From Brassicibacter mesophilus (lineage in GTDB: Bacteria > Bacillota > Clostridia > Tissierellales > Proteiniboraceae), in assembly GCF_050433385.1 (NCBI RefSeq), contig NZ_JBNPXI010000003.1, positions 159,939 to 223,938 of the forward strand: 64,000 bases of DNA. The letters are read 5' to 3'. The notes beneath the pieces were generated by a model. The model saw nothing but the letters and a program-made list of their open reading frames with translations. It searched no databases and was not told the DNA's origin. Both the position numbers and the translations under genes were made by a program. Below, piece by piece: positions 3,161 to 26,611 of the stretch. Numbering within the stretch: the first letter of the stretch is position 1; each line of letters opens with the position of its first letter.

Positions 3161-3221
3161 CGTGATTTTTTAAAAGCGTGCTATGAATTTAAGAAAAATA
3201 ATAAAAGAGAGGGGAATGTAA

Positions 3222-3953: not shown

Positions 3954-4227
3954 AAATATAGTATTATTAATTTTAGTAGGACTTATAGTGATAATTCCAT
4001 TAATAATAAAAAGTGATGCAGAATTTGGTGGAGCAGATGGAATGGCTGAAGAAGCAATAACAGAGATAAATCCATCTTACGAGCCTTGGTTTGAACCTCT
4101 ATGGGAGCCACCAAGTGGAGAAATAGAAAGCTTATTATTCAGCTTACAGGCTGCATTAGGTGCAGGTGTTGTTTTTTATAGTATTGGATACATGAAAGGA
4201 AAGAAAAATAGTGCTTATAATAGATAA
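3937..4227 (+). CDS. cbiN: cobalt transport protein CbiN
   Basis: 96-aa two-TM protein directly after cbiM, TTG start 8 nt after GAGGAGGG; typical cbiMNQO order. Confidence 0.7.
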
Positions 4228-4891: not shown

Positions 4892-4901
4892 AGGAGATAC
4901 C

Positions 4902-12222: not shown

Positions 12223-12326
12223 CTGTATCTCTAAAGCTCTTATGAACAGGACTGATATTTGCCCCTTTATAGTAATTGAAAAAAATGTCTAAGAATGCTA
12301 CTATGATTATAAGGGGGTAATAGTAT

Positions 12327-12773
12327 ATGGATAATATTTGGAGTATAGTTATTGTTCAAGGAGCTATATATAAAGAAGATAAATGGCTTATGATAAAAAG
12401 AAGTGAAAATGAAGAGCATGCCCCTGGAATAATCTCTTTTGTTGGAGGAAAGCTAGAGAATAAAGGAGACGAACAGGATGTTCTTGAAAAGACATTGAAA
12501 AGAGAGATTATGGAAGAAGTAGGAATAGAAATAAGTAATGATATAAGGTATATAGAGAGTAAATCTTTTGTTTCAGATGGTGGGGATCCGATTGTGGAAG
12601 TAATTTTTTTATGCAGATATAAAAGTGGACAACCTTATTGTGCTGATACTGACGAAGTAGCAGAGATTTACTGGATGTCGATTGATGAAATTATTCGCAA
12701 TGAAAAAACACCTATATGGGTAAAAGAAGGCATACAGAAAGCGGAGCAACTGAGATTAAATATTATAGCCTGA
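12327..12773 (+). CDS. NUDIX hydrolase
   Basis: Nudix box GGKLENKGDEQDVLEKTLKREIMEEVGIE (Gx5Ex7REUxEExGU). Confidence 0.75.
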   Translation: MDNIWSIVIVQGAIYKEDKWLMIKRSENEEHAPGIISFVGGKLENKGDEQDVLEKTLKREIMEEVGIEISNDIRYIESKSFVSDGGDPIVEVIFLCRYKSGQPYCADTDEVAEIYWMSIDEIIRNEKTPIWVKEGIQKAEQLRLNIIA

Positions 12774-12798
12774 CAGAGTGATTCTGTCAGGCTTTTTC
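12768..12798 (+). terminator. rho-independent terminator
   Basis: GCCTGACAG-agtgatt-CTGTCAGGC perfect 9-bp stem followed by TTTTTC. Confidence 0.8.
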
Positions 12799-12966
12799 TA
12801 TAAAATTTTCCAAAAAACTATTGACTTAGAAGATTATCTAATCATATAATGATGTTAGAAGGTTATCTAATTGTCATTCGGATTAGATAGTCATTAAATT
12901 ATTGTTTAAATCAACAATATATTATTAAAAATTATATACAATAAGTAGACTTTAGGAGGGTATGCG

Positions 12967-14040
12967 TTGAAAATAAGGTTTGATCCAAAGATAGGAGAAG
13001 TAAATGATTTCTTTTCATTTTTGTATTGGGTATATAATTCTGATGAGATTAATAAACAATTTGAGGAATATGAATTAGAATCAAATGAAGATTATGAAAG
13101 CTTTATAAGAAAGGTAAAGCAGGATGAATATGTACAGAATGAAAAATTGAAATCGTACTACAGTATGGAAATTGGATTAGCTGATGTTTTTTTATTGTAT
13201 TCTGAAATATGGGAGTATCCAGAAATAGATGAATGTCTAAACTTTATAAAGAAGTTAGATAAGAATACCCTAAGATTTAGATTAATAAGAGAGATAATTA
13301 GATGTGGAAAAAATGGTAATGAGCTAGAAGAGATTAATAAGCGAGCAAAAGAAATTGCAATAGATGAGCATAAGAGTATCACTTTTATTAAGGATTTAGA
13401 TTATGATTCAGGTTTAAAATGGGACTTATTTTGTTTCTTACAAGAGCCTGAGAAATACAGAGATGATTACGTCAGCCTTATGCAGAATTTAATACCGGTG
13501 TTCTATAAGTATTATGAGCCAGAAAGAAAAGAGATTAATGCGTTTAATAAACATATTGAAAAGAATTTTAATGACAAAGGAATTAATTTTCTTAAACAAT
13601 TCACTGGTAAATTTTTTAAATACGAAATATATGAAGAAGTTTTTATAACTACTAGCTACGTTAACTACTATTCACTTATGTTTAAGGTCTCAGGTCATTC
13701 GAGCTATATTTATCTAGGATTAGGCTTTGAGGAATCTATCAAGCAGTATAAGGGAGGAGAAGAAGATAAGCTAAAAAAATATGTTAATATATTTAAAAAC
13801 TTTTCGGATACTACTAGATTTCAAATACTTAAGCTTATAGTTGAGGATGAAGAATACTGTAGTAAAGATATTGCTGAAAAGCTTGGAATTACTGGAGCCA
13901 CAGTTTCATATCATATCAATAATCTTTGTTCTGCAGAATTAGTTATAATAGATAGGAAAGACAGGAAAAATATCTACACTGTAAATAAAGACGTTATTAG
14001 AGATGGAATAGAGTTTTTAATTAAAGAGCTTAAGCTATAA
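12967..14040 (+). CDS. ArsR-family winged-helix transcriptional regulator with ~250-aa uncharacterised N-terminal domain
   Basis: C-terminal TRFQILKLI...CSKDIAEKLGITGATVSYHINNLCSAELV matches ArsR/SmtB HTH; TTG start 8 nt after AGGAGGG; N-terminal region without recognisable motif. Confidence 0.6.
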   Translation: MKIRFDPKIGEVNDFFSFLYWVYNSDEINKQFEEYELESNEDYESFIRKVKQDEYVQNEKLKSYYSMEIGLADVFLLYSEIWEYPEIDECLNFIKKLDKNTLRFRLIREIIRCGKNGNELEEINKRAKEIAIDEHKSITFIKDLDYDSGLKWDLFCFLQEPEKYRDDYVSLMQNLIPVFYKYYEPERKEINAFNKHIEKNFNDKGINFLKQFTGKFFKYEIYEEVFITTSYVNYYSLMFKVSGHSSYIYLGLGFEESIKQYKGGEEDKLKKYVNIFKNFSDTTRFQILKLIVEDEEYCSKDIAEKLGITGATVSYHINNLCSAELVIIDRKDRKNIYTVNKDVIRDGIEFLIKELKL

Positions 14041-14076
14041 GCTGTTATTTCATTATAAAGTCAGGGAGGCTATAAC

Positions 14077-15381
14077 ATGGGGGATAATGTTCAAGATTTA
14101 AGAATGAAAAAATCTAAGATTATGTCAAATATGGTGTTATTACTTTTAGGAAGGCTAGTATCTTTATTTGGTACACGGATATACAGCTTTGCAATAAGTC
14201 TTTATGTATTAAAAACTACTGGTTCAGGAACTACTTTTGCACTATCATTAGTTTTTGGAACACTTCCAGCAGTAATTTTTGGACCTATAGCAGGTGTTAT
14301 CAGTGACAAAATTAACAGAAAAAGAATAGTTGTAGTTATGGACATTTTAAGCGGGATCGTCGTGTTATTGCTGTTTAGTGTAGCAATAATAGATGATTTA
14401 AGATTATCTTATATATACATCACATCTTTTCTATTATCTACATGTAATACTTTCTTTAATGTTCCTTTCCAAGTATCTATACCTAATATAGTAGATGAAA
14501 AAAATCTTATGAGAGCTAATTCACTAAATCAAGCTATAACTTCAATTACTTCTATAGCAGGACCATTTTTAGGAGGTCTTGTATATGCATTTATTGATAT
14601 TAAGCTGTTTCTTATCATAAATGGTATATCCTTTATAGCTTCTGGAATCACTGAGATGTTTATTGACTTTAATTTAAATAAACCTGAATTAAATGAACAA
14701 ACGTTAGAGGCAGAAAATATTGAAGTAGGCAAGAACTCAATCATTGAAAACTTCTTGCGTGATTTTATAGAAGGGTTCTCGTATCTTAAATCTACAAGGT
14801 CTATGTTTATGTTATTTATTTCAGCAATATTTATAAATTTCTTCATGACTCTAGGAATAACAGTTCCATTTCCTTATATGGTTAATGAGATACTTAAGAT
14901 GTCATCAAAACAATTTGGTGTTTTAGAAGCTATATTTCCATTGGGAATGCTTGCGGGATCAATTGCTTTATCAGTAATGCCTCAGAGTGAAAAGAACTTC
15001 AAGAAAATTATATTTGGATTACTAGTTACAAATGCTGGTATTATCTTGATGGGAGTTTCTGTTGTACCTGAACTGTTGATATTTAGTAAGAACACATATT
15101 TTATTGGATATATAATAGTTTCATTCATCATATCTATAGCGATTGTTGTTATAAACATACCTATCGAGGTAACTCTTCAAAGAGAAATTCCTGATAATAT
15201 CAGAGGAAGAATATTTGGACTGATTAGTACCATTGCTATGTCATGTACGCCAATAGGTATGATACTTTCAGGCGTACTAATTGATTTGATTCCTGTATGG
15301 ATATTGCCAGTACTTTCTGGGCTTGTTCTTCTAGGATTGACAGTAACTATGGCTAATAATAAAGATATTAGAGAGTTATAG
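14077..15381 (+). CDS. MFS transporter (drug/enterobactin-exporter-like subfamily)
   Basis: 434 aa, ~12 hydrophobic helices, MFS motif-A-like GPIAGVISDKINRKR between TM2-3. Confidence 0.8.
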   Translation: MGDNVQDLRMKKSKIMSNMVLLLLGRLVSLFGTRIYSFAISLYVLKTTGSGTTFALSLVFGTLPAVIFGPIAGVISDKINRKRIVVVMDILSGIVVLLLFSVAIIDDLRLSYIYITSFLLSTCNTFFNVPFQVSIPNIVDEKNLMRANSLNQAITSITSIAGPFLGGLVYAFIDIKLFLIINGISFIASGITEMFIDFNLNKPELNEQTLEAENIEVGKNSIIENFLRDFIEGFSYLKSTRSMFMLFISAIFINFFMTLGITVPFPYMVNEILKMSSKQFGVLEAIFPLGMLAGSIALSVMPQSEKNFKKIIFGLLVTNAGIILMGVSVVPELLIFSKNTYFIGYIIVSFIISIAIVVINIPIEVTLQREIPDNIRGRIFGLISTIAMSCTPIGMILSGVLIDLIPVWILPVLSGLVLLGLTVTMANNKDIREL

Positions 15382-15473
15382 GAAAAATAGTATAGGATCG
15401 TTAGAAGTGCAAGAATTATATATTATTTTGAAAACAATGTTACAAAGGATTCAAAGTAATACCAAATGGAAAC

Positions 15474-15498
15474 AAAGGCAGGTTGTTCACCTGCCTTT
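15474..15498. terminator. bidirectional rho-independent terminator
   Basis: AAAGGCAGGT-tgttc-ACCTGCCTTT; A-tract one side, T-tract other; lies between convergent MFS (+) and DtxR-like (-) genes. Confidence 0.7.
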
Positions 15499-15861
15499 AG
15501 TCTGTTTAAAATGTTTCTTTATACATTGATAACTTTCATCGCTGATATCGTGCTCAATTTTACAGGCATCTGCTAGAGCAGTTTTTTCACTAACACCTAA
15601 TGCCATTAAAAACTTAGCAAGGGTTTGATGCCGATCATACATTCGAGTTGCAATTTCAAGACCGTCACCTATTAATGTGATATACCCATCAGAATCTATA
15701 TTGATATATCCATTTTCCCGTAGTTTCTTCATAGCGACACTGATGCTGGGCTTAGTATATCCTGTTTCGTTCACTATATCAATAGAACGTACCTGGCCAA
15801 TATGCTCCTTAAGCATCAGAATAGTTTCCAAATAGTCTTCTGCCGACTCTTGTATTTTCAT
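15487..15861 (-). CDS. DtxR/MntR-family metal-dependent transcriptional regulator
   Basis: 124 aa; AEDYLETILML...VRSIDIVNETGYTKPSISVAMKKLRENGYI HTH and metal-binding region typical of MntR/DtxR. Confidence 0.8.
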   Translation of the reverse strand: MKIQESAEDYLETILMLKEHIGQVRSIDIVNETGYTKPSISVAMKKLRENGYINIDSDGYITLIGDGLEIATRMYDRHQTLAKFLMALGVSEKTALADACKIEHDISDESYQCIKKHFKQTKGR

Positions 15862-15895
15862 TTTCTCACCTCACAAAATTTATTTATATATCTAT

Positions 15896-15911
15896 GTTAG
15901 TATATACTAAC
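15896..15911. promoter_or_regulatory. perfect 16-bp palindrome GTTAGTATATACTAAC upstream of DtxR-family gene (candidate auto-operator)
   Basis: Exact inverted repeat ~35 nt upstream of the - strand start codon at 15861. Confidence 0.45.
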
Positions 15912-15974
15912 TGTTTTTTCAAGGACTGCTTTTTACCGATTGACAAATCAGTATTACAATGATAACGTAATATT

Positions 15975-16004
15975 TTGGTAGGTTAGTTAACGCTAACCTA
16001 CCAA
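15975..16004. promoter_or_regulatory. palindrome TTGGTAGGTTAG-ttaacg-CTAACCTACCAA (DtxR-box-like half-sites)
   Basis: 12-bp perfect arms; half-sites GGTTAG/CTAACC resemble DtxR/IdeR consensus TTAGGTTAGCCTAACCTAA; in divergent intergenic region between DtxR-like and AraC genes. Confidence 0.45.
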
Positions 16005-16114
16005 GCAGTAGACATGATTATTAATTGCCAATATAAATTATTAGTATTAAGTAGAGAAAGCGTGATAGTTTGTTTTTTATTTATGAAGTAACAATGTAAG
16101 GAGGGTAAAAACAC

Positions 16115-17110
16115 GTGAGTATGTTATCAAAAGATAGAGAACTATATGGTCCTGAAGTGAAAGTGATTTCACAGTCCGAAGATTGTGTGGTATACAAAAT
16201 GAAAAACGATAATGGGGAAGGTATAATGACCAGCTATCAAGTATTTCCAGGGATTGTATTGGTTTATAATGACTTTCATATGGGGAGCTGCGTTTATAAT
16301 AAACAGCCATGTGCTGATATTATGGAAATCAATCATTGCCGTCAGGGACGATTTGAATGTGAATTTTTAAATGGGGGCTATGTATATCTAGAAGAAGGTG
16401 ATCTTGCTGTAAATATGCTAAGCAATAGAACTACAAGATCTTGTTTTCCACTGGAGCATTATCACGGTGTCTCTGTGATAATATGTCTTTATGAGGCTGA
16501 AAAATCAATTTCTTCTGTTTTAGATGATATATCAATTGACCTATATTCTTTACGTGATAAGCTATGCAGTAAAGATAAATGTTTTATCATGCGTGCCAAG
16601 AATTCTATAGAGCATATTTTCTTCGAGCTTTATACAGTGCCGGATGAAGTCAAGCATGGATACTTTAAACTGAAGGTACTGGAACTTCTATTATTTCTTA
16701 GTATTGCAGATGTTTCAGAACAAAGAGAAGAACGACAGTATTTTCACAAGAGTCAGGTCGATATTGTTAAAGCAATTAAGGAACACATGACACAGCACTT
16801 GGAGCAACATAATACACTGGAGGAATTGTCCAACCGTTTCAAAATACCTCTAACAGCTATGAAGCTTTGTTTCAAAGGAGTCTATGGAACATCGATTTAT
16901 GCCTATATGCGTTCCTATCGAATGCAGGCTGCTGCTGTAATGCTACGCCAATGCAATGATAGTGTTACTGACATTGCAGGCAAGGTCGGATATAGCAATT
17001 CTAGTAAATTTGCGTCGGCATTTAAAGCTGTTATAGGGATGTCACCATTGGAATACAGGAAAACAAGTCGTCTAAATGGAGCATTTTTGACCGTTCGGAG
17101 TAGAAAATAA
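16115..17110 (+). CDS. AraC-family transcriptional regulator
   Basis: C-terminal dual HTH (MRSYRMQAAAVMLRQCNDSVTDIAGKVGYSNSSKFASAFKAVIGMSPLEYR); N-terminal ligand-binding-like domain. Confidence 0.8.
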   Translation: MSMLSKDRELYGPEVKVISQSEDCVVYKMKNDNGEGIMTSYQVFPGIVLVYNDFHMGSCVYNKQPCADIMEINHCRQGRFECEFLNGGYVYLEEGDLAVNMLSNRTTRSCFPLEHYHGVSVIICLYEAEKSISSVLDDISIDLYSLRDKLCSKDKCFIMRAKNSIEHIFFELYTVPDEVKHGYFKLKVLELLLFLSIADVSEQREERQYFHKSQVDIVKAIKEHMTQHLEQHNTLEELSNRFKIPLTAMKLCFKGVYGTSIYAYMRSYRMQAAAVMLRQCNDSVTDIAGKVGYSNSSKFASAFKAVIGMSPLEYRKTSRLNGAFLTVRSRK

Positions 17111-17227
17111 GCGTAAAAAAAACTATAATAGTGCGTATCAGTGATCGACTTAAGGTGCCTAGAAGTGTATTTTTGGCAGCGGGTTAGTTGAAACTAACTA
17201 AAATCATTTATGTTAGGAGGGTAATTT

Positions 17228-17257
17228 ATGAAGAGAAGCAGTGTGCAATATATATGA
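17228..17257 (+). CDS. 9-codon upstream mini-ORF (MKRSSVQYI) translationally coupled to leader ORF
   Basis: AGGAGGG RBS 7 nt upstream of ATG 17228; its TGA overlaps the ATG of the next ORF (ATATGA). Confidence 0.3.
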   Translation: MKRSSVQYI

Positions 17258-17433
17258 AGTGCGTGTTGCAGAAATTTTTTGACTATCTAATCAATTACAA
17301 CAATGACAACGTGCCCAATACTCCTCTTACTTATGTCAAAGACATGATCGTGTATAATACTGACAAAATCAAAGACTATACCTTCAACAACACTCCAAAG
17401 TTCTTTGATATTAGACAATTATATGTTAAATAA
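17254..17433 (+). CDS. candidate leader peptide (BmrB-like, 59 aa from ATG 17254; 81 aa if TTG 17188)
   Basis: Small ORF immediately upstream of heterodimeric ABC exporter genes, followed by intrinsic terminator before the ABC start; no similarity recognisable. Confidence 0.35.
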   Translation: MKCVLQKFFDYLINYNNDNVPNTPLTYVKDMIVYNTDKIKDYTFNNTPKFFDIRQLYVK

Positions 17434-17499
17434 ATTGTTGTCCGATTGGAGTCGAATTGACTTTACGGAGTAGAACAGAAAAATAAAAGAGCTTAAAAT

Positions 17500-17537
17500 A
17501 GAGGTTGGTTAGCTTTAACTAACTAACCTCTATTTTT
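17500..17537 (+). terminator. intrinsic terminator / attenuator upstream of ABC exporter operon
   Basis: AGAGGTTGGTTAG-cttta-ACTAACTAACCTCT stem then TATTTTT; immediately followed by RBS GAAAGGAGC and ATG 17554. Confidence 0.65.
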
Positions 17538-17553
17538 GAAAGGAGCATTTATT

Positions 17554-19371
17554 ATGAAACAAAAATCTAAAAAAAAGAATGGTTTCTCCCGATTATTTGA
17601 AATAGCGGGTGAAAAAAAGATGCTGCTGATCGCCTCAGGATTTTTATCGGCGCTTAGTGCAGCATGTATGCTTGTTCCGTTTATATCTGTTTATCAGATC
17701 CTGGGAGAATTGTTGCAAAACGGAGGTAGCATTGTCTTGGTGAACAGTACCATGATGATTAGGTGGGGCTGGATAGCTTTTGCGGGATTAATTGCAGGAT
17801 TGCTGTTTTTGTACGCTGCAATCATCTGCTCCCATGTAGCAGCTTTCCGAATTTTATACGGGCTGCGAATGGGGCTCGCAAAGCATATCGGTAAGCTATC
17901 GCTTGGGTATTTGAACAGCACTGCAACAGGTGCTGTAAAAAAGAATTTGGAGCAAGATGTGGAACGAATAGAGTTGTTTGTTGCTCACACAATTCCAGAC
18001 CTTGTGAATGTAGGGGCAACGGTTGTTGTGATGTTTGTTATATTCTTCAGCCTTAACGGTTGGATGGCGCTTACCTGTGTCATCGCCTTTGCCATCAGTA
18101 TAGCTATGCAGGCTTCAATGATGTTTGGTAAAAAAGCACAAGGCACAATGAAAGCTTATTTTGATTCACAAGAACGTATCCATTCTTCAGCCATACAATA
18201 TGTCCGAGGTATACCAGTAGTTAAAATATTCGGACAGACCGTTTTTTCTTTTAAAAAATTTCATGCAGATCTGTACAATTACAGAGACTGGGCAGTTGCT
18301 TATTGTGATAAATTCGAAAACGGTATGGCTGTTTTTACAGTAATACTCAACTCGTTTTTGACGTTTATCCTGCCTGTGGGCTTGCTGATTATGAGTGGAG
18401 ACCCAAATAATATTTCCTTTGCCCTCGTATACTTGTTTTTTATTATCATGGTTCCAGGTGCATCCTCTCCGCTGTATAAATTGACTTTACTCGCTTCGGG
18501 GACAAGAGAGATTTTTGAAGGCGTTTCACGCATTGATAAAATCTATGATGAAGAGCCAATCAAGGAGACTTCAAGTCCTAAATATCCTAACAGTCATGAT
18601 ATTACCTTTGAAAATGTGACCTTTGCTTATGAAAATAAAGCAGAAGCAACAAGAGTTGAAGCTCTGACCAATATCAGCTTTACTGCCAAAGCTGAAGAGA
18701 TAACTGCTTTGGTAGGACCGTCGGGCTCCGGGAAATCTACCGTGGCCAATCTAATTCCTCGCTTTTGGGATGTCACAACTGGAGAAATCAAAATCGGGGG
18801 AGTGAATATAAAGGATATTTCTACAGAAGAACTTATGAATACAGTATCATTCGTATTTCAGGATACATTTCTTTTTTACGATACGTTGTTTGAGAACATT
18901 AAGGTTGGCAGACCTGATGCCACTGACGAGGAAGTCTATGCAGCTGCGAGAGTAGCACAATGTCATGAATTTATTGAAAGCTTGCCAGATGGTTACAATA
19001 CACTCATAGGTGAAGGTGGTGTGTTTCTTTCTGGAGGTGAAGAACAGCGTGTTTCAGTTGCTCGTGCTATTCTCAAAGATGCACCTATTCTCGTTCTTGA
19101 CGAAGCAACAGCCTTTGCTGATCCTGAAAATGAATACAAGATGCAGATTGCATTGAAAGAACTCATTAAAAGCAAAACGGTTATTGTTATTGCTCACAGA
19201 CTATCCTCCATTAAAACTGCTAATCAAATTATCGTGCTAAAAAATGGGAAAATTGAACAAATCGGTACCCACGATAATCTGACAGCTATGGAAGGTCTAT
19301 ATCAGCGAATGTGGAAAGCCTATACCAGTGCTTACGACTGGACACTGAAAACTGGAGGTGTGAAAGCATGA
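17554..19371 (+). CDS. ABC exporter, fused permease-ATPase half-transporter (BmrC/YheI-like)
   Basis: 6-TM N-domain + NBD with Walker A GPSGSGKST, signature LSGGEEQR, Walker B LVLDEAT; ORF track start 17536, RBS favours 17554. Confidence 0.85.
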   Translation: MKQKSKKKNGFSRLFEIAGEKKMLLIASGFLSALSAACMLVPFISVYQILGELLQNGGSIVLVNSTMMIRWGWIAFAGLIAGLLFLYAAIICSHVAAFRILYGLRMGLAKHIGKLSLGYLNSTATGAVKKNLEQDVERIELFVAHTIPDLVNVGATVVVMFVIFFSLNGWMALTCVIAFAISIAMQASMMFGKKAQGTMKAYFDSQERIHSSAIQYVRGIPVVKIFGQTVFSFKKFHADLYNYRDWAVAYCDKFENGMAVFTVILNSFLTFILPVGLLIMSGDPNNISFALVYLFFIIMVPGASSPLYKLTLLASGTREIFEGVSRIDKIYDEEPIKETSSPKYPNSHDITFENVTFAYENKAEATRVEALTNISFTAKAEEITALVGPSGSGKSTVANLIPRFWDVTTGEIKIGGVNIKDISTEELMNTVSFVFQDTFLFYDTLFENIKVGRPDATDEEVYAAARVAQCHEFIESLPDGYNTLIGEGGVFLSGGEEQRVSVARAILKDAPILVLDEATAFADPENEYKMQIALKELIKSKTVIVIAHRLSSIKTANQIIVLKNGKIEQIGTHDNLTAMEGLYQRMWKAYTSAYDWTLKTGGVKA

Positions 19372-21098
19372 GAATCTTTCAAAATATTACTGTTGGACAA
19401 CCGAAAAGACTGGTTAAGCCTATCGGATTTACTATTTTGGCTAATTTGGTTAATGTCATTCCGTTTATGTTTTCCATTGAAGCGGTAAGAATTATATTCA
19501 ATGCTTTCAATGGTTCTGGCACAGGTTTGGATACTACTCACCTTTGGATGATTATTGGGAGCTTGTTTGCTTATATGATAGTGATGTTTATCGCAGAGAA
19601 GCCTGCATACCGCCATAGTTATCGTGATGCTTATGAACTCTCTGCAGACGGCAGAGCAAATCTAGCCGAGCACCTGAGGAGGCTTCCACTAGGTTATATT
19701 ATAAGCCGTGATCCAGGTGATCTAGCAAATATGATGATGGGTGATTTTACATTGATTGAAACAGGTGTATCTCATATTGTTCCACAGCTATTTGGCGCAC
19801 TAGTTATGCCGTTGATTGCCTTTGTTTCTCTTTTGTGGATCGACTGGCGTATGTCTATTGCTATGTTTGTGGCACTTCCCCTTGCCATACTTTTATTGTG
19901 GACTTGTTCCAAAATTCAGAAACGTATGGCAGACAGGCAAATGAAATTCAAGCTTGATGCAGGTAACCGCCTGCAGGAATATCTGTTTGGTATTCGTGTT
20001 ATGAAAGCCTATAATCTGGTAGGTGAGAGATTTATCCGTCTTGATAATGCTTTTAAAAAATTAATGAAAGAGTGTATTCGCTTTGAAGCCTTAACAGGTC
20101 CCATCGTGCTTACCACTATAACGCTTATTCGAGCAGGTTTGACACTAATGATTTTGACAGGCTCTTATCTGTTGGTAGGGGGTTCTTTAGATGTACTAAC
20201 CTTTGTAATGTTTTTAGTCATTGGCTCCCGGGTATACGATCCTCTTACCTCTGCTTTGATGAAATATGCAGAACTTCGTTATGATGAGCGAGCAGGCGAA
20301 CGTATTTTGAATTTAATGAATGAACAGGAAATGGGTGGTTATAAAGAACCTAACGGTAGTACTGATATTGTGTTTGAAAATGTTTCCTTCGGCTATGGAG
20401 ACAAGGATGTCTTGCATAATGTTTCTTTGACAATGAAGCAAGGAACATTAACAGCACTTGTAGGACCATCGGGAAGTGGTAAAAGTACGGTACTGAAGCT
20501 GTGTGCAAGATTCTATGATCCAAGTGATGGAAAGGTCACTTTCGGAGGAATTGATGAGTCAATCCTTGACCCTGAAAAGCTAATGAAAAAGATTTCAATG
20601 GTATTTCAGGATGTCTATTTGTTTCAAGATACTATCGGCAATAATATTCGTTTTGGGAAAGAAAATGCTACAGATAAAGAGATGATCGAAGCTGCTAAGA
20701 AAGCCTGCTGCTATGATTTCATTATGGCGCTTCCCAAAGGCTTTGATACTATGGTTGGAGAAGGTGGTTGTACTCTTTCTGGTGGTGAAAAACAACGTAT
20801 TTCCATTGCACGTGCTATGCTAAAAGATGCTCCTGTTGTTCTTCTTGATGAGGCAACAGCTTCACTTGATCCCGAAAATGAAGTTGAGGTGCAAAGGGCG
20901 ATCAGTGAGCTGATTGCAGGCAGAACAGTTATTGTAATTGCTCATCGACTTAAAACCATCAAGGATGCAGACAATATCGTTGTTATGGAGGATGGAAAAG
21001 TTGCTGAGCAAGGTACACATGATGAGCTAATCTGTAAGGATGGGCTTTATAAAAAATTATGGACGATCCAGACCGAATCTAGCGGATGGGAATTATAA
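19368..21098 (+). CDS. ABC exporter, fused permease-ATPase half-transporter (BmrD/YheH-like partner)
   Basis: TMD + NBD: GPSGSGKST, LSGGEKQR, LLLDEAT; ATG 19368 overlaps upstream stop (ATGA) after GGAGGTG, indicating heterodimer pair. Confidence 0.85.
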   Translation: MRIFQNITVGQPKRLVKPIGFTILANLVNVIPFMFSIEAVRIIFNAFNGSGTGLDTTHLWMIIGSLFAYMIVMFIAEKPAYRHSYRDAYELSADGRANLAEHLRRLPLGYIISRDPGDLANMMMGDFTLIETGVSHIVPQLFGALVMPLIAFVSLLWIDWRMSIAMFVALPLAILLLWTCSKIQKRMADRQMKFKLDAGNRLQEYLFGIRVMKAYNLVGERFIRLDNAFKKLMKECIRFEALTGPIVLTTITLIRAGLTLMILTGSYLLVGGSLDVLTFVMFLVIGSRVYDPLTSALMKYAELRYDERAGERILNLMNEQEMGGYKEPNGSTDIVFENVSFGYGDKDVLHNVSLTMKQGTLTALVGPSGSGKSTVLKLCARFYDPSDGKVTFGGIDESILDPEKLMKKISMVFQDVYLFQDTIGNNIRFGKENATDKEMIEAAKKACCYDFIMALPKGFDTMVGEGGCTLSGGEKQRISIARAMLKDAPVVLLDEATASLDPENEVEVQRAISELIAGRTVIVIAHRLKTIKDADNIVVMEDGKVAEQGTHDELICKDGLYKKLWTIQTESSGWEL

Positions 21099-21139
21099 CT
21101 ATTGTACAGGATTAACTATAAAGACTTTGGAGGTTCTAC

Positions 21140-22528
21140 ATGGGAGAAACAATGATTGATCAGAAAGAAAAACAAAAGCAATTTATATTGAACGGTAACC
21201 TATGGAAGGTCATGGTTGATTTATCGTGGCCTGCCATTTTAGCCATGGTGCTGTATGGACTGAATTCAGTTTTGGATGCTGTCTTCATCGGAAATTTTGT
21301 AGGGGAAACTGCTTTAGCAGGGGTTTCTGTAGCGTACCCACTTTCCCAAATAAGCGTAGCGTTTGGCTCCTTAATTGGAGTTGGTGCAGGTTCAGTTTTA
21401 AGTATAGCTCTAGGCAGTCAAGACAAAAAAACACAAGAACGGTTATTAGGAAATGTTAACTGGCTGTCTCTTGCTACAACAGTCATTTATATGGTTCTAG
21501 GGCTGCTCTTTTCAACTAAGCTAGTACAGATTATGGGAGGAAAGGGTGAAGCCTTAGTTTTAGGAGATAGTTATTTTAGAATCACTATTTTGGGAGCATT
21601 TTTTTGGATTTACGGATTAGCTGGAAATATGATCATACGAGCCGAGGGAAAAATGAAATCAGCAGCCGCTATGATGGGAATAGGTCTAACTGCCAATGTG
21701 ATTGCTAATTATGTATTTATTGTGCTCTTTGACTTGGGTGTGGAGGGTGCCGCATGGGGCACTAACATTGGAATGTTGGTATATACCCTACTTGGGTGGA
21801 TATATTTTGGGAAAGGCTATGCTTCATTTAAATCGAAGATTTTTTCTTTGCATCGAGATAAGGATATTATAAAATCCATTTTAAGCTTGGGGATGTCTGC
21901 TCTAATTATGAGCATTATGAACCTGATGCAGGCCATCGTTGTTTTTAATGCATTATCAAAATATGGTACAACGGCAGACGTTGCTTTTTACGGAGCAGTA
22001 TATCGTATATTCACATTCCTACTTACTCCAATTTTTGGATTGATGCGTGCGCTGCAGCCTGTGATTGGAATCAATTATGGAGCAAGGCAGTATAACCGTG
22101 TTATTCGCTGCTATAAAATATTTGCTATTGCTTCTATGGTACTGACGTTGCCTTTTTGGATTGTTTCCATGATAGCTCCTAGATCAGTTTTGGAATTGAT
22201 GCTGGCGGAGCAACTTTTTACAAAAACACAATTCTTGTACTTTAGGACCTATATGGGGACTTTGCCAGCATTGTCAATTATCTTTATGGCAATGACATTT
22301 TTCCCGTCTATCGATAAAGGAAAGCCTGCTGCTCTCATCGGTATCGTAAGGCAACTAATTTTTTATGTACCAGTCATGTTGATTTTGCCCAAAATGATTG
22401 GCATATCAGGAATATATTATGGCTCCTTTGCAATTGAGGTGGTTATTATCCTATGGACAATTATTATGGTAAAAAGAGAATTTTCTGTGCTTCGTCTAAA
22501 AGACTCAAGTTCAACGCTTAGGGTATGA
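21140..22528 (+). CDS. MATE-family efflux transporter
   Basis: 462 aa, 12 TM, N-terminal LWKVMVDLSWPAILAMVLYGLNSVLDAVFIGNFVGETALAGVSVAYP typical MATE. Confidence 0.8.
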   Translation: MGETMIDQKEKQKQFILNGNLWKVMVDLSWPAILAMVLYGLNSVLDAVFIGNFVGETALAGVSVAYPLSQISVAFGSLIGVGAGSVLSIALGSQDKKTQERLLGNVNWLSLATTVIYMVLGLLFSTKLVQIMGGKGEALVLGDSYFRITILGAFFWIYGLAGNMIIRAEGKMKSAAAMMGIGLTANVIANYVFIVLFDLGVEGAAWGTNIGMLVYTLLGWIYFGKGYASFKSKIFSLHRDKDIIKSILSLGMSALIMSIMNLMQAIVVFNALSKYGTTADVAFYGAVYRIFTFLLTPIFGLMRALQPVIGINYGARQYNRVIRCYKIFAIASMVLTLPFWIVSMIAPRSVLELMLAEQLFTKTQFLYFRTYMGTLPALSIIFMAMTFFPSIDKGKPAALIGIVRQLIFYVPVMLILPKMIGISGIYYGSFAIEVVIILWTIIMVKREFSVLRLKDSSSTLRV

Positions 22529-22610
22529 TCGTTGCCAATGCAAAGAATCGGATAATAGGAAGGATTAAAATCATTGACTAATGACGAATTGTACTAATAG
22601 AATTTTTTCA

Positions 22611-22662
22611 GGGCTAAGTGTCTTTTATCAATAAATATTGAAAAGGCACTTAGCTTTTTTAT
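22611..22662 (+). terminator. rho-independent terminator after MATE gene
   Basis: GGGCTAAGTGTCTTTT...AAAAGGCACTTAGC long stem (one G.U) followed by TTTTTTAT. Confidence 0.6.
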
Positions 22663-22867
22663 ACTCTCCAAAATCTTTTAAAACACAACAGCATCATATA
22701 AAAATTTATAAAAAGAAAGGGGATGTAAAACAGTGATGATGACTATGGAAGAAAGAGTGATTTGATCATCAACATTTGCCCTCTTGTTTATAAAGATCAA
22801 ATATAATAATATATAGATTATTAGAAACACTAAATATGCAAAGCATTAAACAAAAAGGAATGATAAG

Positions 22868-24964: not shown

Positions 24965-26611
24965 TTGCCAAATCTTCATATTTCATACATAAAAGAATCC
25001 ATTTGTGGTTTATGTAGAAATATTCCTGACAAATATAAAAAAGAATTCTCTGAAGAGATTCTTGAAGCCAATTTGATCAAAGAAGGTAAAATTTCTATTA
25101 TTCTTCTATTTCTAAATATCCTATTGATAATTTTTGATTGTACTTTTCTAATTGATGAATGGTCATATAGACCAGCATACAAATATTTATTCTATTCTCA
25201 TGTATGTATAGTAGTGTTCTTATCACTATTCATTTTATTATTTCACTTAAGAAATAAAACAATATTTACAAGAATTAGTTGCTTTACAAGAATATTAGAG
25301 CTAGGATGTATTGTCATTAATCTAATGTGGTGTGTCTTTTTATCAGTTAATGCTCAGCTTATACATAATCAGATATCGGCATATATTATAGGTGTATTTT
25401 ATGTAGCTTCTGCTTTAACAATCAATCCTTTTTACAGCTTAATTATTTATGTTTCAACCTATCTATTTTTTATAATAGGCCTTTTACGTGTTCAAGATGA
25501 CCCGGCACATTTGATAGGTAATATAGTAAATTCATTGTTTATTTTAATACTTGCATTTACTATTTCTAAGTTTAGATATAATGCATATATTACGGATTTT
25601 ATTAATAGAAAGATTATACGAGAAAATAATAAGGATTTAGATAACTTTGCAAAAGAATTAGAATACATGGTAGAAAAAAGAACAGTAGAATTAACTGAAG
25701 CTAACGAACGTTTGATTAAAGAGATAAATATGAGGCATGAGATTGAGTTACAAGCTATGAAGGCAAGACTTCTTTGTGAAGAAAAAACAAGAATACTAAA
25801 TGAAGCTTTAGAGTATGACAAGCTTAGGACATCATTTTTTGCGAACATTTCACATGAATTAAAAACACCTTTAAATGTAATATATTCTACCCAACAAATG
25901 TTAGCGAAAATATTAATAGATGACAAAAGTAAATATGATGAATACAAAGCTAGTAAGTATATAAACTTAATTAAGCAAAATTGTTACAGATTAGTACGAC
26001 TAATAGGTAATCTTATTGATATAACAAAAATTGATGCAGGCTATTTTGATGTAAATTTTGGAAACTATGATATTGTTAAATTAGTTGAAGACATTGCTTT
26101 GTCAGTAGCAGAATATGCTGAGAATAAGAATATAAATCTAATTTTTGATACAGAGATTGAAGAAAATTTGATCGCTTGTGATCCTGATAGAATAGAACGT
26201 ATTATATTAAATTTATTGTCAAATGCAATAAAATTTACCCCTAAAGATGGATGCATTTATGTAAATGTACATACAAGTATAGACTATGTAGACATATCAG
26301 TAAAAGATACTGGAATAGGCATACCAAAAGATGTACAAGATATAATATTTGGCAGGTTTATTCAAGCTGATAATAAGAATAAAGATGTAAAGGAAGGTAG
26401 TGGAATAGGATTAGCATTAGTAAAATCTCTGGTTGAAATGCATGGTGGCTATATATCACTTATAAGCGATATTGGAAAAGGAAGCGAATTTATAATACAT
26501 TTACCCAATCATATATTAGAAGTTAGTGATACTGAAAAGACAGATTCCGATTACTATAGAGATCAAAAAATAGAAAATATCAATATTGAATTTTCTGATA
26601 TATATTCCTGA
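24965..26611 (+). CDS. membrane sensor histidine kinase (orphan; no adjacent response regulator)
   Basis: N-terminal ~6 TM helices, HisKA H-box FFANISHELKTPLN, HATPase_c N/G boxes (LSNAIKFT, DTGIGIP, GSGIGL); TTG start after GGAGGTG. Confidence 0.8.
   Translation: MPNLHISYIKESICGLCRNIPDKYKKEFSEEILEANLIKEGKISIILLFLNILLIIFDCTFLIDEWSYRPAYKYLFYSHVCIVVFLSLFILLFHLRNKTIFTRISCFTRILELGCIVINLMWCVFLSVNAQLIHNQISAYIIGVFYVASALTINPFYSLIIYVSTYLFFIIGLLRVQDDPAHLIGNIVNSLFILILAFTISKFRYNAYITDFINRKIIRENNKDLDNFAKELEYMVEKRTVELTEANERLIKEINMRHEIELQAMKARLLCEEKTRILNEALEYDKLRTSFFANISHELKTPLNVIYSTQQMLAKILIDDKSKYDEYKASKYINLIKQNCYRLVRLIGNLIDITKIDAGYFDVNFGNYDIVKLVEDIALSVAEYAENKNINLIFDTEIEENLIACDPDRIERIILNLLSNAIKFTPKDGCIYVNVHTSIDYVDISVKDTGIGIPKDVQDIIFGRFIQADNKNKDVKEGSGIGLALVKSLVEMHGGYISLISDIGKGSEFIIHLPNHILEVSDTEKTDSDYYRDQKIENINIEFSDIYS

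Follow-up and report, generated by a model that had tools for sequence, protein, structure and literature searches.

Gene content of the locus

The window analyzed is a 64-kb stretch of the Brassicibacter mesophilus chromosome in which a 7.5-kb island lies between the backbone genes encoding an MFS membrane protein and YgiQ. The island encodes a DtxR/MntR-family repressor, an AraC-family regulator, two ABC half-transporters (ABC1 and ABC2) and a MATE-family transporter (Table 1), in agreement with the gene calls of the original prediction. The strong terminators predicted at both ends are also present; the left hairpin folds at -16.8 kcal/mol on the plus strand and -18.6 kcal/mol on the minus strand (z -3.7 and -4.6). 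The N-terminal 230 residues of the AraC-family regulator gave no family match.

Table 1 Features of the island. Positions are those of the window; promoter assignments are consensus matches only.
Feature	Position	Strand	Remarks
Island-specific DNA, full extent	15381..22840		Between MFS (end 15381) and ygiQ (start 22868)
Terminator hairpin, bidirectional, left edge	15474..15498		Scan of both strands; overlaps 3' end of DtxR-like gene
DtxR/MntR-family metal-dependent repressor	15487..15861	-	124 aa, no SH3 domain; Pfam Fe_dep_repress and Fe_dep_repr_C
Putative operator O1, GTTAGTATATACTAAC	15896..15911		Motif search; overlaps -10 of the repressor's promoter-like site (15922-15894, minus strand)
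Putative operator O2, GTTAGTTAACGCTAAC	15982..15997		In 10-bp-arm palindrome, 16-22 bp downstream of AraC promoter-like -10
AraC-family regulator	16115..17110	+	331 aa; HTH_18 at residues 239-316
Promoter-like site of lost importer	17101-17129	+
Orphaned promoter region of lost importer	17101..17257	+	Aligns with L090, AraC stop to permease start (MKKDSIQHIL...)
Putative operator O3	17183-17198		In lost importer's promoter region, RBS after
First 9 codons of nikB-like permease gene	17228-17257	+	MKRSSVQYI*
3' remnant of nikA/cntA-like solute-binding-protein gene	17254..17433	+	59 codons; within the formerly predicted leader ORF
Palindrome with putative operator O4 (17508-17523)	17491..17536	+	18-bp stem, then T5 run and ABC1 RBS
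ABC half-transporter 1 (TMD-NBD), IrtA/YbtP-like	17554..19371	+	605 aa; start set at 17554
ABC half-transporter 2	19368..21098	+	576 aa; start 19368 overlaps ABC1 stop (ATGA)
Junction of two foreign blocks	21099..21139	+	MATE RBS region begins here
MATE-family transporter	21140..22528	+	462 aa; GC3 0.356
Intrinsic terminator, right edge	22610..22657	+	-23.3 kcal/mol, z -6.2, then UUUUUU

Composition and horizontal origin

The original prediction described the segment as richer in G+C than its flanks and consistent with horizontal acquisition; the first statement is confirmed and the second well supported. Its spot values were exact (45.0% at 17581-17640 and 21.7% at 3961-4020), and the island as a whole (15381-22840) has a GC content of 37.8% versus 31.0 +/- 0.8% (maximum 32.6%) in all 167 equal-sized segments elsewhere. 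Along the window GC is 0.38-0.41 at 17-22 kb versus ~0.31 outside. As the GC3 of the five island genes is raised (0.304-0.361 versus 0.220 +/- 0.028, maximum 0.292, in 47 other ORFs; z = 3.0-5.0, Mann-Whitney p = 3.8e-7), the shift is synonymous rather than an amino-acid effect. Codon-usage distance (0.139-0.168 versus 0.086 +/- 0.018, maximum 0.133) and tetranucleotide distance (up to z = 7.1) likewise mark the island as an outlier relative to the rest of the window.

In the closest relative found, L091 (BipA 90%, YgiQ 85% and MFS 67% identity), nucleotide homology stops at window position 15380 and picks up again at 22841. The backbone order ArsR-MFS...YgiQ-BipA is retained, and the slot between MFS and YgiQ holds three unrelated genes of native GC3 that have no homolog anywhere in the 64-kb window. 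Hence the synteny comparison showed the absence of the island from the relative but not the adjacency of MFS and ygiQ; none of the relatives compared had an empty site in which the two genes directly adjoin. Proteiniborus sp. MB09-C3 (L002), Tissierella praeacuta (L004), L090/92, L093/94, L172 and L095 all carry related modules, each at an unrelated locus. The island proteins are 79-90% identical to module copies in other genera, whereas for the core GTPase BipA the identity is 82% with this Proteiniborus genome and ~77% with the listed entries from Tissierella. Since module identity exceeds that of BipA and the loci are unrelated, horizontal origin is well supported, and the island is almost certainly foreign DNA. 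ABC1 retains 76% identity in Aminobacterium (Synergistota) and 67% in Bacteroides/Parabacteroides, and the AraC-family regulators of the L002, L004, L090 and L093 modules share 80-83% identity with that of the island. The Proteiniborus copy is also GC3-rich relative to its host, and the intact module of L093 has a GC3 of 0.42-0.49, matching its host; the best nucleotide identity of the island to any other copy is about 82%. The core (15491-21105) is a widely traveled module composed of a small SH3-less DtxR-family repressor, a divergently transcribed AraC-type regulator and then transporter genes.

It is highly improbable that the segment is native and owes its composition not to transfer but to selection, whether through expression level or a bias of membrane proteins. 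This poorly supported reading could appeal to the fact that both the NCBI B. mesophilus genome and a second strain-level variant carry the island at this locus, and to the lack of mobility genes (the search for an integrase, a transposase, a tRNA gene and flanking direct repeats gave none at the island). Against it stand the synonymous nature of the shift, the L091 slot, the module copies at unrelated loci and the native composition of other nearby membrane transporter genes, such as that of the neighboring MFS protein (GC3 0.218). Moreover, the boundaries of the homology blocks match the edges of the compositional shift; L093 module homology starts inside the right arm of the left hairpin, at about 15488. 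The island has the look of cargo swapped at a recombination hot spot that conserved backbone genes flank on both sides.

A lost importer and an added MATE gene

The open reading frame originally taken for a leader ORF (17188-17433) is instead a deletion scar that joins the first 9 codons of a nikB-like gene to the 3'-terminal 59 codons of a nikA-like gene. The 59-codon remnant has 67% amino acid identity to the C-terminal end of the L090 SBP_bac_5 gene (7713-7877) and 77-79% nucleotide homology to L090, L004 and L093. Contiguous homology to L093 (1907-3048) stops at window position 17253 and leaps from 3048 to 7701, so that 4,652 bp are missing in the window. What this clean 4.65-kb deletion took out, between the genes for AraC and ABC1, is an importer of the Nik/Cnt type encoded by five genes. 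L090 and L093 still have the module intact, and there the best NCBIfam matches of these genes, all scoring below the curated cut-offs, are NikA-E, S. aureus Opp1/Opp2 (Ni/Co) and CntA/C/D/F; going by these matches, the importer resembles Ni/Co or opine systems and does not look specific for iron. The ancestral module carried the importer in this position, and its promoter and operator were left behind with the two codon remnants. Loss or breakage of the Nik-like importer has happened more than once: the junctions differ between the window and Tissierella, at most a vestige is present in Proteiniborus, and in L090/92 the solute-binding-protein gene is split. As the ABC pair is intact in all these copies despite the losses, it does not depend on the importer.

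Behind ABC2 follows a second block of foreign DNA, the MATE gene, which has been fused to the module. Module homology stops at 21099-21105 and homology of the MATE block to L172 begins at 21117. The terminator present after ABC2 in L093 and L004 is absent from the window, and the ABC2-MATE gap showed no stable structure (fold z +0.4). MATE homologs share 81% identity in other contigs, 76-77% in Alkaliphilus, Hathewaya and Tissierella, and ~70% in Paenibacillus. In L172 the homolog is preceded by the operator described below and accompanied by a TetR gene of its own; a TetR regulator accompanies this MATE lineage in L172 and L173 and is absent from the island. Joining the MATE block directly to ABC2 would have cost the ABC2 terminator together with the operator and TetR gene of MATE, so MATE would ride on the metal-controlled ABC transcript and is probably co-transcribed with ABC1 and ABC2. 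The module is therefore not self-contained, as had been proposed, but a composite of two foreign blocks from which a five-gene importer has been lost.

A shared putative operator and its proposed repressor

The palindrome RGTTAG-N6-CTAACY has four sites in the 64-kb window, found only at island promoters, and recurs in every related module. A search for GGTTAG-N6-CTAAC allowing <=1 mismatch gave 8 strand-hits at these 4 sites versus 0.73 expected, and the exact core has 2-7 copies in every module locus versus 2 matches in about 2.37 Mb of other loci. A site equivalent to O2 lies upstream of the AraC gene in L002, L004, L090 and L093, and the O4 palindrome (-26.3 kcal/mol, z -5.5) is conserved upstream of ABC1 in these four loci and in L172 and L095. 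With its T-run the O4 hairpin could also be an RNA terminator, instead of or besides an operator. From the position of O1 we infer that the repressor is autoregulated. The operator precedes feoA-feoA (three copies) and feoB in L095, and MATE, DUF2325-DUF3793-flavodoxin, a regulator pair, ABC1 and an ECF S-component in L172. Because these feo, flavodoxin, ECF importer and MATE genes share it, the sites suggest an iron-starvation regulon of the 124-aa repressor; the regulators of the feo and flavodoxin loci are more distant (51-57% identity to the island repressor).

The best solved relatives of the repressor are E. coli and B. subtilis MntR, followed by DtxR/IdeR. Its predicted ligands are D9, E12, H78, C100, E103 and H104. 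C100, conserved in seven of seven orthologs, occupies the position of MntR Glu99, which we take to be that of DtxR Cys102. Position 9 (MntR Asp8) is Asp in the window and Met in L172 and L095. According to a review, no DtxR-family protein lacking the SH3 domain has been found to be Fe2+-responsive in vivo (PMC7762939).

The ABC pair

When only the membrane domains were searched against solved relatives, ABC1 matched IrtA (57 bits) and YbtP (45 bits), all others scoring <=31, and ABC2 matched YbtP (62 bits), IrtA (42), YbtQ (41) and Sav1866 (32). By these searches, in which IrtA, YbtP and YbtQ lead by 10-30 bits, both domains are nearest to siderophore importers rather than drug exporters, although the similarity is remote (E = 1e-14 to 1e-16) and import and export are indistinguishable from sequence. 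Full-length searches placed YbtP as the top half-transporter for both subunits, with strong matches to P-glycoprotein, MsbA and Sav1866. The NBD motifs are canonical in both proteins and thus both ATP sites are canonical. Some sources name the homologs IrtA/YbtP. The neighbors at other loci are of uptake type: a TonB-dependent receptor in B. fragilis, a DUF4198 gene in Aminobacterium, and ZIP, Feo, Nik-like and ECF systems.

Proposed function and alternatives

We consider it reasonably probable that the island is a composite, horizontally acquired unit for iron/metal-starvation transport under a DtxR-type repressor, with the ABC pair likely acting as an importer, the Nik/Cnt importer lost and MATE added. 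With an ample supply of its cognate metal, most likely Fe2+, the repressor would in its metal-loaded form bind the operators, which lie on or just downstream of the -10 at four promoters (those of the repressor, AraC, the lost importer and ABC1-ABC2), and block transcription; metal starvation would derepress the island genes. The AraC protein would probably add ligand-dependent activation, as in siderophore uptake systems controlled by Fur plus YbtA/PchR/Btr. ABC1 and ABC2 would pair as a heterodimer in which both ATP sites are active. Among exporter-fold ABC transporters it falls in the IrtAB/YbtPQ branch, and its most likely role is to import a chelate of iron or another metal.

The island looks like a partly decayed patchwork that serves transport under metal (probably iron) starvation, less like the regulated multidrug/metabolite export unit of the original prediction. 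We regard as unlikely a self-contained efflux module in which the ABC pair and MATE extrude toxic compounds under a MarA/Rob-like AraC activator. MATE is an efflux family (sources name the homologs MepA), the ABC pair has type IV exporter architecture, and the AraC HTH weakly matches the Rob, MarA, SoxS and RamA models. The strong full-length ABC matches are, however, NBD-driven, the DtxR-type operator at all island promoters is common to feoAB, flavodoxin, Nik-like and ECF uptake genes elsewhere, and TetR, the usual drug-pump regulator of this MATE lineage, is missing. Most Gram-positive heterodimeric drug exporters (BmrCD, LmrCD, EfrCD, TM287/288) have one degenerate ATP site, and hence the canonical sites of the pair also count against drug efflux. 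MATE is the sole exporter by family in the island and our tests give no pointer to drugs as its substrate. On the side of efflux, YbtPQ itself is reported to lower antimicrobial susceptibility in Klebsiella (PMC7876324).

Rather doubtful is a variant that keeps the metal-starvation regulon but in which a metallophore or other iron-mobilizing compound leaves the cell through the ABC pair, and through MATE, and was taken up again by the lost importer. Opine-metallophore loci have such an export-plus-import layout. The exporter fold, the pairing of an ABC pump with a NikA/CntA-type binding-protein-dependent importer in the intact ancestral module, and the co-regulation of MATE in L172 with its probable co-transcription in the island would all fit. 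However, no metallophore biosynthesis genes adjoin any module copy examined, the importer is repeatedly lost while the ABC pair persists, the Bacteroides pair adjoins a TonB-dependent receptor as in uptake systems, and the nearest TMD relatives are importers. The identity of the metal is a separate matter. Mn2+ or another metal is a possible repressor signal because the window regulator has the MntR-type Asp at position 9, and it is conceivable, though not what we favor, that the regulator senses Mn, Ni, Co or Zn and that the island is a Mn/Ni/Zn-starvation module. MntR is the best family and structure match, it too lacks an SH3 domain (PMC7762939), the lost importer most resembles Ni/Co and staphylopine systems, and a ZIP transporter adjoins the ABC pair in L095. 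Iron is favored by the Cys replacing MntR Glu99 in all orthologs, by the DtxR-like half-sites and spacing, by the feoAAB and flavodoxin genes, typical of iron limitation, and by the lack of mntH or mntABC genes adjoining any operator.

Comparison with known systems

Like classical genomic islands, this one is atypical in composition, occupies a variable chromosomal slot in a strain- or lineage-specific manner and carries accessory transport functions, but it has no integrase, tRNA gene or flanking direct repeat. NikABCDE and staphylopine CntABCDF provide the best matches of the importer genes of L090 and L093, of which the window keeps only 9 + 59 codons. The repressor shares with DtxR/IdeR and MntR the two-domain wHTH plus dimerization architecture and has ligand-type residues at 6/6 MntR positions; it resembles MntR in length and in lacking SH3, and DtxR in its Cys and, in some orthologs, Met. 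Its predicted iron-type regulon is unseen for SH3-less family members (PMC7762939). The palindrome uses the DtxR half-site: its TTAG-N6-CTAA core is present twice, 5 bp apart, in TTAGGTTAGCCTAACCTAA, the DtxR consensus from the literature and a binding site for two dimers (PMC7762939; geometry read from the sequence).

Mycobacterial IrtAB, the IdeR-regulated importer of mycobactin/carboxymycobactin, likewise pairs a heterodimeric exporter-fold ABC transporter with a DtxR-family repressor (control is predicted here); IrtA is the top TMD match for ABC1, and the operator half-sites resemble the DtxR/IdeR box. The island differs in its SH3-less repressor, in an operator that is a single TTAG-N6-CTAA unit rather than a 19-bp double site, and in an ABC1 of 605 aa (versus 859 aa for IrtA) without the N-terminal FAD-binding siderophore-interacting domain, the alignment beginning at IrtA residue 288. 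From the yersiniabactin uptake unit of the Yersinia/Klebsiella HPI (Fur-repressed ybtA plus ybtPQ) it differs in having a DtxR-family repressor rather than Fur, in its Gram-positive anaerobic host, in the remote TMD similarity and predicted rather than established import, and in lacking siderophore biosynthesis genes, an outer-membrane receptor and YbtX. In both units, an AraC-family regulator adjoins two half-size exporter-fold ABC genes on horizontally mobile DNA under a metal-responsive repressor (predicted here), and YbtP is the top solved half-transporter for both subunits at full length and for ABC2 by membrane domain.

Composition and extent of the island

The interval between the MFS transporter gene and ygiQ (15381-22840) has a GC content of 0.378, compared with 0.310 ± 0.008 (maximum 0.326) elsewhere, over all 167 equal-length segments in the window. 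In 1-kb sliding windows across the 64 kb, GC content was 0.38-0.41 at about 17-22 kb as against about 0.31 elsewhere. The G+C-rich stretch at 15.4-22.6 kb of the original prediction was thus borne out, and its two spot GC values were exact (45.0% and 21.7%). The compositional shift is located at synonymous sites. GC3 of the five island genes is 0.304-0.361 versus 0.220 ± 0.028 (maximum 0.292) in the 47 other ORFs, an excess of z = 3.0-5.0 (Mann-Whitney p = 3.8e-7). Codon usage is also further from the background in the island genes (distances of 0.139-0.168) than in native genes of at least 300 aa (0.086 ± 0.018, maximum 0.133), and the tetranucleotide distance has its maximum in the island (z = 7.1). 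The sliding-window, codon and tetranucleotide analyses that had been proposed as a check therefore set the island apart, and both base composition and codon usage depart from those of the host, as expected of an acquired genomic island. A membrane-protein bias does not explain the shift, because the adjoining MFS transporter gene is native in composition (GC3 0.218).

The terminators proposed at both boundaries are real, and the assigned gene families (DtxR-like, AraC, ABC pair and MATE) were confirmed by Pfam and NCBIfam. The starts of ABC1 and ABC2 were corrected, such that the two genes share an ATGA overlap. An Rfam search of the whole window returned no families and no riboswitch or leader RNA. 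Just upstream of the island locus is a tetrapyrrole cluster (hemC, cobA-hemD, hemB and hemL) that is unrelated to the island and would be relevant to work on the heme or iron economy of the organism. It is followed by a gene encoding a 357-aa protein, in which only a C-terminal ArsR-type HTH was recognized (residues 273-345; the long N-terminal part gave no family match), and by the MFS (Mef/EntS-like) transporter gene.

Features of the island, of its neighborhood and of related loci
Sequence	Feature	Position	Strand	Remarks
Window	Tetrapyrrole cluster	7515-12222		Pfam and contig annotation; native composition
Window	ArsR-HTH protein and MFS transporter genes	12967-15381
Window	DtxR/MntR-like regulator	15487-15861	-	124 aa
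Window	Operator	15896		Over the -10 of the promoter-like site of the regulator gene
Window	Operator	15982		3' of the AraC promoter-like -10
Window	AraC	16115-17110	+
Window	AraC end and importer start	17095-17253		Aligns with the importer loci
Window	Operator	17183		Orphaned importer promoter
Window	Remnant ORF	17188-17433		Former 'leader ORF'; scar at 17254-17433
Window	Importer end and spacer	17254-17553		Aligns with the importer loci
Window	Palindrome at ABC1	17491-17536		18-bp stem, then T5
Window	Operator	17508		Immediately 5' of the ABC1 RBS
Window	ABC1	17554-19371	+	605 aa
Window	ABC2	19368-21098	+	576 aa
Window	MATE	21140-22528	+
Window	Sensor histidine kinase gene	24965-26611		Between ygiQ and bipA
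L090 (equivalent in L092)	nikA-like gene in two ORFs	6262-7880		281 + 258 aa
L172	Second DtxR-N/MarR-like HTH gene	6533-6940		135-137 aa in L172 and L095
L095	Second DtxR-N/MarR-like HTH gene	6316-6729
L173-L175	MATE/DtxR-like/ABC cluster	7218-16755
L086/L087	ABC pair homologs	5085-11565		B. fragilis-type contigs
L075 (Roseburia)	DtxR-like gene	~12947		3' of ygiQ
L078 (Roseburia)	DtxR-like gene	~12993		3' of ygiQ

Evidence for horizontal acquisition

BipA/TypA of the window is identical to the B. mesophilus protein (Bacillota; Tissierellia; Thermohalobacteraceae). The NCBI B. mesophilus genome has the same genes in the same order (consecutive accessions MGF7057520-28), and in a second strain-level variant (98-99% amino acid identity) a single 15-kb contig holds hemL, MFS, AraC, ABC1 and MATE. 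The island is thus a fixed part of the species' genome. Absence of the island from the NCBI strain had been considered and was rejected when a cluster look-up found it in that genome.

The metagenomic contig of the closest relative found (L091, located by way of BipA) retains the backbone order ArsR-like, MFS, ..., YgiQ, BipA with identities to the window of 53%, 67%, 85% and 90%, respectively, and so the ArsR-like/MFS pair is backbone and lies outside the island. In this contig the space between MFS and ygiQ is taken up by three unrelated genes that are native in composition and encode an unknown protein, a DUF3160 protein and a flavin reductase; homologs of the three were not found in the window. 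Backbone nucleotide homology breaks off at window position 15380 and picks up at 22841. Thus, the MFS-ygiQ interval is a variable slot, of which the island is one alternative cargo. The synteny check suggested in the original prediction, run in this one relative, was answered in part: the island is absent from the slot, but MFS and ygiQ are not adjacent, as three genes lie between them. Searching for an empty site with YgiQ among 185k species representatives (best YgiQ 77% identical) was uninformative, as flank synteny was kept in none of 80 loci.

Two other observations concern the ygiQ side of the locus. The sensor histidine kinase gene, which has a native GC3 (0.177) and no adjacent response-regulator gene, is missing in L091, where ygiQ is directly followed by bipA; it is a second variable gene at this locus. 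On two Roseburia contigs a gene for a DtxR-like protein (55% identical to the island regulator) lies about 1 kb 3' of ygiQ, an adjacency that is probably coincidence although the neighbor gene is the same as in the window.

The core of the module was found at unrelated loci in Proteiniborus sp. MB09-C3 (AraC, ABC1 and ABC2 only), in Tissierella praeacuta (regulator, AraC, remnant, ABC1 and ABC2) and on contigs L090/92, L093/94, L172 and L095. In the module copies the regulator is 79-86% identical to that of the window, AraC 80-83% and the ABC1 and ABC2 proteins 86-90%, and the core GTPase BipA is only 82% identical to that of the same Proteiniborus genome and about 77% identical to that of Tissierella among the matches listed. 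ABC1 is 76% identical to its homolog in Aminobacterium (Synergistota) and 67% identical to those in Bacteroides and Parabacteroides. The same genes thus occur in unrelated contexts and taxa, with a similarity that, by protein identities, does not track species relationship, as in acquired islands. The Proteiniborus copy is GC3-rich for its host (0.32-0.35 versus 0.20-0.27), and the Tissierella and B. fragilis copies have GC3 in line with their hosts. On L093/94 a complete and intact module lies in a context of about 42% GC and has a matching GC3 (0.42-0.49). Because the complete module sits there at host-matched GC3, L093/94 is a donor-type lineage. Nucleotide identity to the window is at most about 82% in any copy. 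The transfer is not very recent, or the sequence has partly ameliorated.

The hallmarks of mobility (integrase or transposase, tRNA target and flanking direct repeats) are lacking. No integrase or transposase was found among the island ORFs and no tRNA gene anywhere in the 64-kb window, and a search for direct or inverted repeats as island boundaries gave only short, chance-level matches. Horizontal acquisition, as originally proposed, is well supported by composition, by absence from the L091 slot and by the presence of the module at unrelated loci.

Loss of a Nik-like importer

In the modules of L090/92 and L093/94, AraC and ABC1 are separated by five genes for a binding-protein-dependent importer. 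Searched against NCBIfam, these genes scored best with NikA-E, with Opp1/Opp2 of S. aureus (nickel/cobalt) and with CntA/C/D/F (staphylopine), and none of the scores reached the curated cut-off. The two ends of this importer align with the window. The left segment comprises the end of AraC plus the importer promoter, operator, RBS and first codons (MKRSSVQYI-stop in the window, MKKDSIQHIL in L090), and the right segment contains the last ~59 codons of the binding protein and the spacer before ABC1 (67% amino acid and 77-79% nucleotide identity). In L093 coordinates the homology to the window skips from 3048 to 7701, and thus 4,652 bp are missing. Given the alignments to both importer ends and this gap, the ORF at 17254-17433 is a deletion scar. 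What had been called a leader ORF is a remnant of the binding-protein 3' end, and its reading as a leader peptide or attenuator was ruled out.

The Tissierella copy has another deletion junction, without the permease start or the operator, and the Proteiniborus copy retains at most a short vestige of the importer. The nikA-like binding-protein gene, which is intact in L093 (544 aa), is in two ORFs in the otherwise complete modules of L090 and L092. The split appears to represent a less advanced state of the decay than that of the window, where it has run to completion. As decay occurred separately in the window, Tissierella, Proteiniborus and L090/92, the Nik-like importer has been repeatedly lost or broken with the ABC pair left intact.

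Origin of the MATE gene

Module homology to other hosts stops at 21099-21105, just past the ABC2 stop codon. At that point L093 and the Tissierella locus have a terminator hairpin after ABC2, and the window has the RBS region of MATE, which is homologous to contig L172 from window position 21117 (72% nucleotide identity). The break falls within MATE's own operator as present in L172, and folding of the ABC2-MATE gap gave no stable structure. The MATE gene (GC3 0.356) is therefore a second foreign block, probably fused transcriptionally to the ABC operon, and the TetR gene and operator that accompany it in L172 were left behind. The original prediction of a self-contained module thus did not hold: the island is a composite of two foreign blocks from which the importer was deleted.

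The MATE protein belongs to its family by Pfam (117 bits versus a cut-off of 24.9) and does not reach the MepA, FepA and subfamily cut-offs of NCBIfam. By family it is an exporter. Its lineage is accompanied by a TetR gene in L172 and L173, and the island has neither a TetR nor a MarR gene. Drug-responsive regulation of the TetR, MarR or MarA type is not seen in it; its promoters all carry the metal-repressor operator. Because the link of MATE to the regulon recurs (in L172 by an operator of its own, in the window by fusion to the ABC operon), the data suggest, speculatively, that the protein takes part in the starvation response and not in drug resistance. A metagenome scan with MATE found no relatives.

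A cluster on L173-L175 encodes TetR, a MATE protein (81% identical to that of the window), a 125-aa DtxR-like protein (34%), an ABC pair (43-44%) and an ECF transporter. These low regulator and ABC identities and the lack of GTTAG-N6-CTAAC sites ruled it out as the same module; it is of a different subfamily and serves only as an analogy. Note that the combination of MATE, a small DtxR-like regulator and a heterodimeric ABC pair recurs in more than one subfamily.

Operator and regulator

Within the 64 kb, GTTAG-N6-CTAAC palindromes were found at four sites, each in an island promoter region. When one mismatch was allowed, 8 strand-hits were found in the window versus 0.73 expected, and no shuffle reached 8. 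The exact core is present in 2-7 copies in every module-bearing locus, and about 2.37 Mb of unrelated loci contained just two; 26 sites from seven loci gave the consensus RGTTAG-N6-CTAACY. These sites, located by motif search, are putative palindromic operators of the kind used by the DtxR/MntR family. Such an operator precedes ABC1 in all Firmicutes copies, and the AraC gene is itself preceded by one. Since every operator lies on or 3' of a -10 element, the metal-loaded regulator would be expected to repress, and starvation to induce, the island genes.

Genes for ferrous-iron uptake and for flavodoxin are characteristic of iron limitation. On L095 three tandem operators precede feoA-feoA and one precedes feoB; another precedes ABC1, just 3' of a ZIP transporter gene. 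On L172 operators are found before MATE, before DUF2325-DUF3793-flavodoxin, before ABC1, before the ECF S-component and between the regulator and a second DtxR-like gene. The operator shared with feoAAB and flavodoxin makes iron-responsive control of ABC1 a candidate mechanism, the feo and flavodoxin evidence being from loci whose regulators are only 51-57% identical to that of the window. The second, shorter DtxR-N/MarR-like HTH gene beside the regulator is present in these two more distant modules (L172 and L095) and by Pfam lacks a metal-binding domain.

The ABC1 operator lies within a long palindrome directly 5' of the RBS (-26.3 kcal/mol, z = -5.5). The palindrome could serve as an extended protein-binding site, as a terminator that insulates ABC1 from the unit lying upstream, or in both roles. 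Several loci keep the symmetry of its extended arms, and L172 shows paired changes.

The regulator has the wHTH and dimerization domains (PF01325 and PF02742, both above cut-offs), scores under the NCBIfam MntR and DtxR equivalog cut-offs and, ending at residue 124, lacks the SH3 domain of the DtxR/IdeR subgroup. The metal ligands of MntR are D8, E11, H77, E99, E102 and H103. In a gapless alignment with B. subtilis MntR these residues correspond to D9, E12, H78, C100, E103 and H104 of the regulator, positions that are kept across its orthologs except for position 9 (D, N or M); the Cys is conserved in 7 of 7 orthologs. The window's regulator has the MntR-type Asp at position 9, and the L172 and L095 regulators have Met there, giving Met/Cys/Glu/His, the ligands of the DtxR primary site. 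The known SH3-less members of the DtxR family have not been found Fe2+-responsive in vivo, and the published DtxR consensus, TTAGGTTAGCCTAACCTAA, is bound by two dimers on opposite faces (both from the review PMC7762939). By our own reading, the consensus contains the TTAG-N6-CTAA core twice, with a 5-bp offset.

The N-terminal 232 residues of the AraC protein had no Pfam match at E <= 1, and an AlphaFold model from the single sequence was unusable (pLDDT 33.8). The AraC-type proteins YbtA, PchR and Btr provide substrate-dependent activation under Fur, and by analogy the island protein would probably add such activation.

Direction of transport by the ABC pair

ABC1 and ABC2 each consist of ABC_membrane plus ABC_tran, as expected of tandem half-transporters with overlapping stop and start codons, and we infer that they form a heterodimer. 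Full-length searches of solved structures were dominated by the NBDs (P-glycoprotein and similar), and the best bacterial half-transporter was YbtP (338 and 309 bits), ahead of IrtA, YbtQ, Sav1866 and MsbA. When the TMDs alone were used, ABC1 gave 57 bits with IrtA, 45 with YbtP and at most 31 with all others, whereas ABC2 gave 62 bits with YbtP, 42 with IrtA, 41 with YbtQ, 32 with Sav1866 and about 30 with BmrA/TM288. By these scores, which denote remote similarity, both TMDs are closer to IrtA/YbtP/YbtQ than to exporters. Several sources label the homologs 'IrtA/YbtP'. IrtAB and YbtPQ are known siderophore importers that use the exporter fold (PMC7002159, PMC11779899). ABC1 lacks the IrtA-specific siderophore-interacting N-terminal domain, the alignment beginning at IrtA residue 288; YbtP likewise lacks this domain, which is thus not required in the wider IrtAB/YbtPQ group. 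The Walker A, LSGGE, Walker B-Glu and H-loop motifs are canonical in both NBDs. In most heterodimeric drug exporters of Gram-positive bacteria, one of the ATP sites is degenerate.

Elsewhere, the neighbors of the ABC pair are a DUF4198 gene (Aminobacterium), ZIP and Feo (L095), the Nik-like importer (L090, L093), an ECF importer (L172) and a TonB-dependent receptor (B. fragilis), an uptake-type company that is only suggestive of inward transport. The pair is also 62-67% identical to homologs on Bacteroides/Parabacteroides-like contigs; on two B. fragilis-type contigs the homologs (66-67%) are divergent from a TonB-dependent receptor gene and lie beside a gene for a 106-aa unknown protein. Bacteroides lack inner-membrane siderophore importers of the FhuBCD/FepBCD type (PMC5552952), and the ABC pair homologs are a candidate for the missing inner-membrane iron-chelate step.

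The TMDs being closest to IrtA/YbtP/YbtQ, the NBDs canonical and the neighbors elsewhere uptake-type, we favor import of iron or another metal chelate, a reading to which we give about an even chance. Export of a chelator ranks second and seems rather unlikely. Drug efflux, the function implied by the original prediction of an efflux module with a heterodimeric ABC exporter, draws on the membership of the MATE protein in an efflux family; however, the ABC pair fits the importer branch better and every promoter carries the metal-repressor operator, and we rank this reading third, as improbable.

Discussion

The island is composite and partly decayed, and the sequence evidence indicates that it is probably a transport island for metal (probably iron) starvation under a DtxR-type repressor. 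It is unremarkable as an island, and the regulon and transporter family make up an uncharacterized variant of kinds already known. A sharply defined operator unites genes that carry the generic annotations 'ABC transporter ATP-binding protein', 'MATE efflux' and 'metal-dependent regulator' into a putative metal-starvation regulon, which is a testable claim on iron sensing and acquisition in under-studied anaerobes. Published reviews hold that SH3-less DtxR-family proteins do not act as iron sensors, and the regulator clade is a candidate exception. Conservation of the ABC pair over three phyla is unusual, and its resemblance to the small number of 'importers with an exporter fold' known so far would make it a tractable new member for work on that mechanism. 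A caution for annotation also follows: the 'leader peptide', plausible as it seemed, proved to be the scar of a deletion, and uptake is probably the main function of the 'efflux island'.

A wider proposal, which we hold to be possible rather than probable, is that the SH3-less DtxR-Cys (in some cases Met) clade is an iron sensor of anaerobic Bacillota that acts at a single-dimer TTAG-N6-CTAA operator and governs a mobile, undescribed iron-starvation regulon (feoAB, flavodoxin, ECF, Nik-like importers and MATE). Its most conserved cargo, the ABC pair, would then import iron chelates across the inner membrane of gut and sediment anaerobes, as a transporter of the IrtAB/YbtPQ type, and could fill the Bacteroides gap.

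A search of the available literature for a counterpart in Clostridia or Bacteroides did not find a description of the module. The closest functional analogues are Fur/YbtA/YbtPQ of the Yersinia high-pathogenicity island and IdeR/IrtAB of mycobacteria. In those systems the repressor is Fur or full-length IdeR, whereas in the island it is a short DtxR-family protein, and the island operator, unlike those of the analogues, is a single dimer unit. The island also differs in having neither biosynthesis genes nor a siderophore-interacting domain. Finally, its host is a Gram-positive anaerobe, and the window copy has lost the Nik-like importer and gained a MATE pump.
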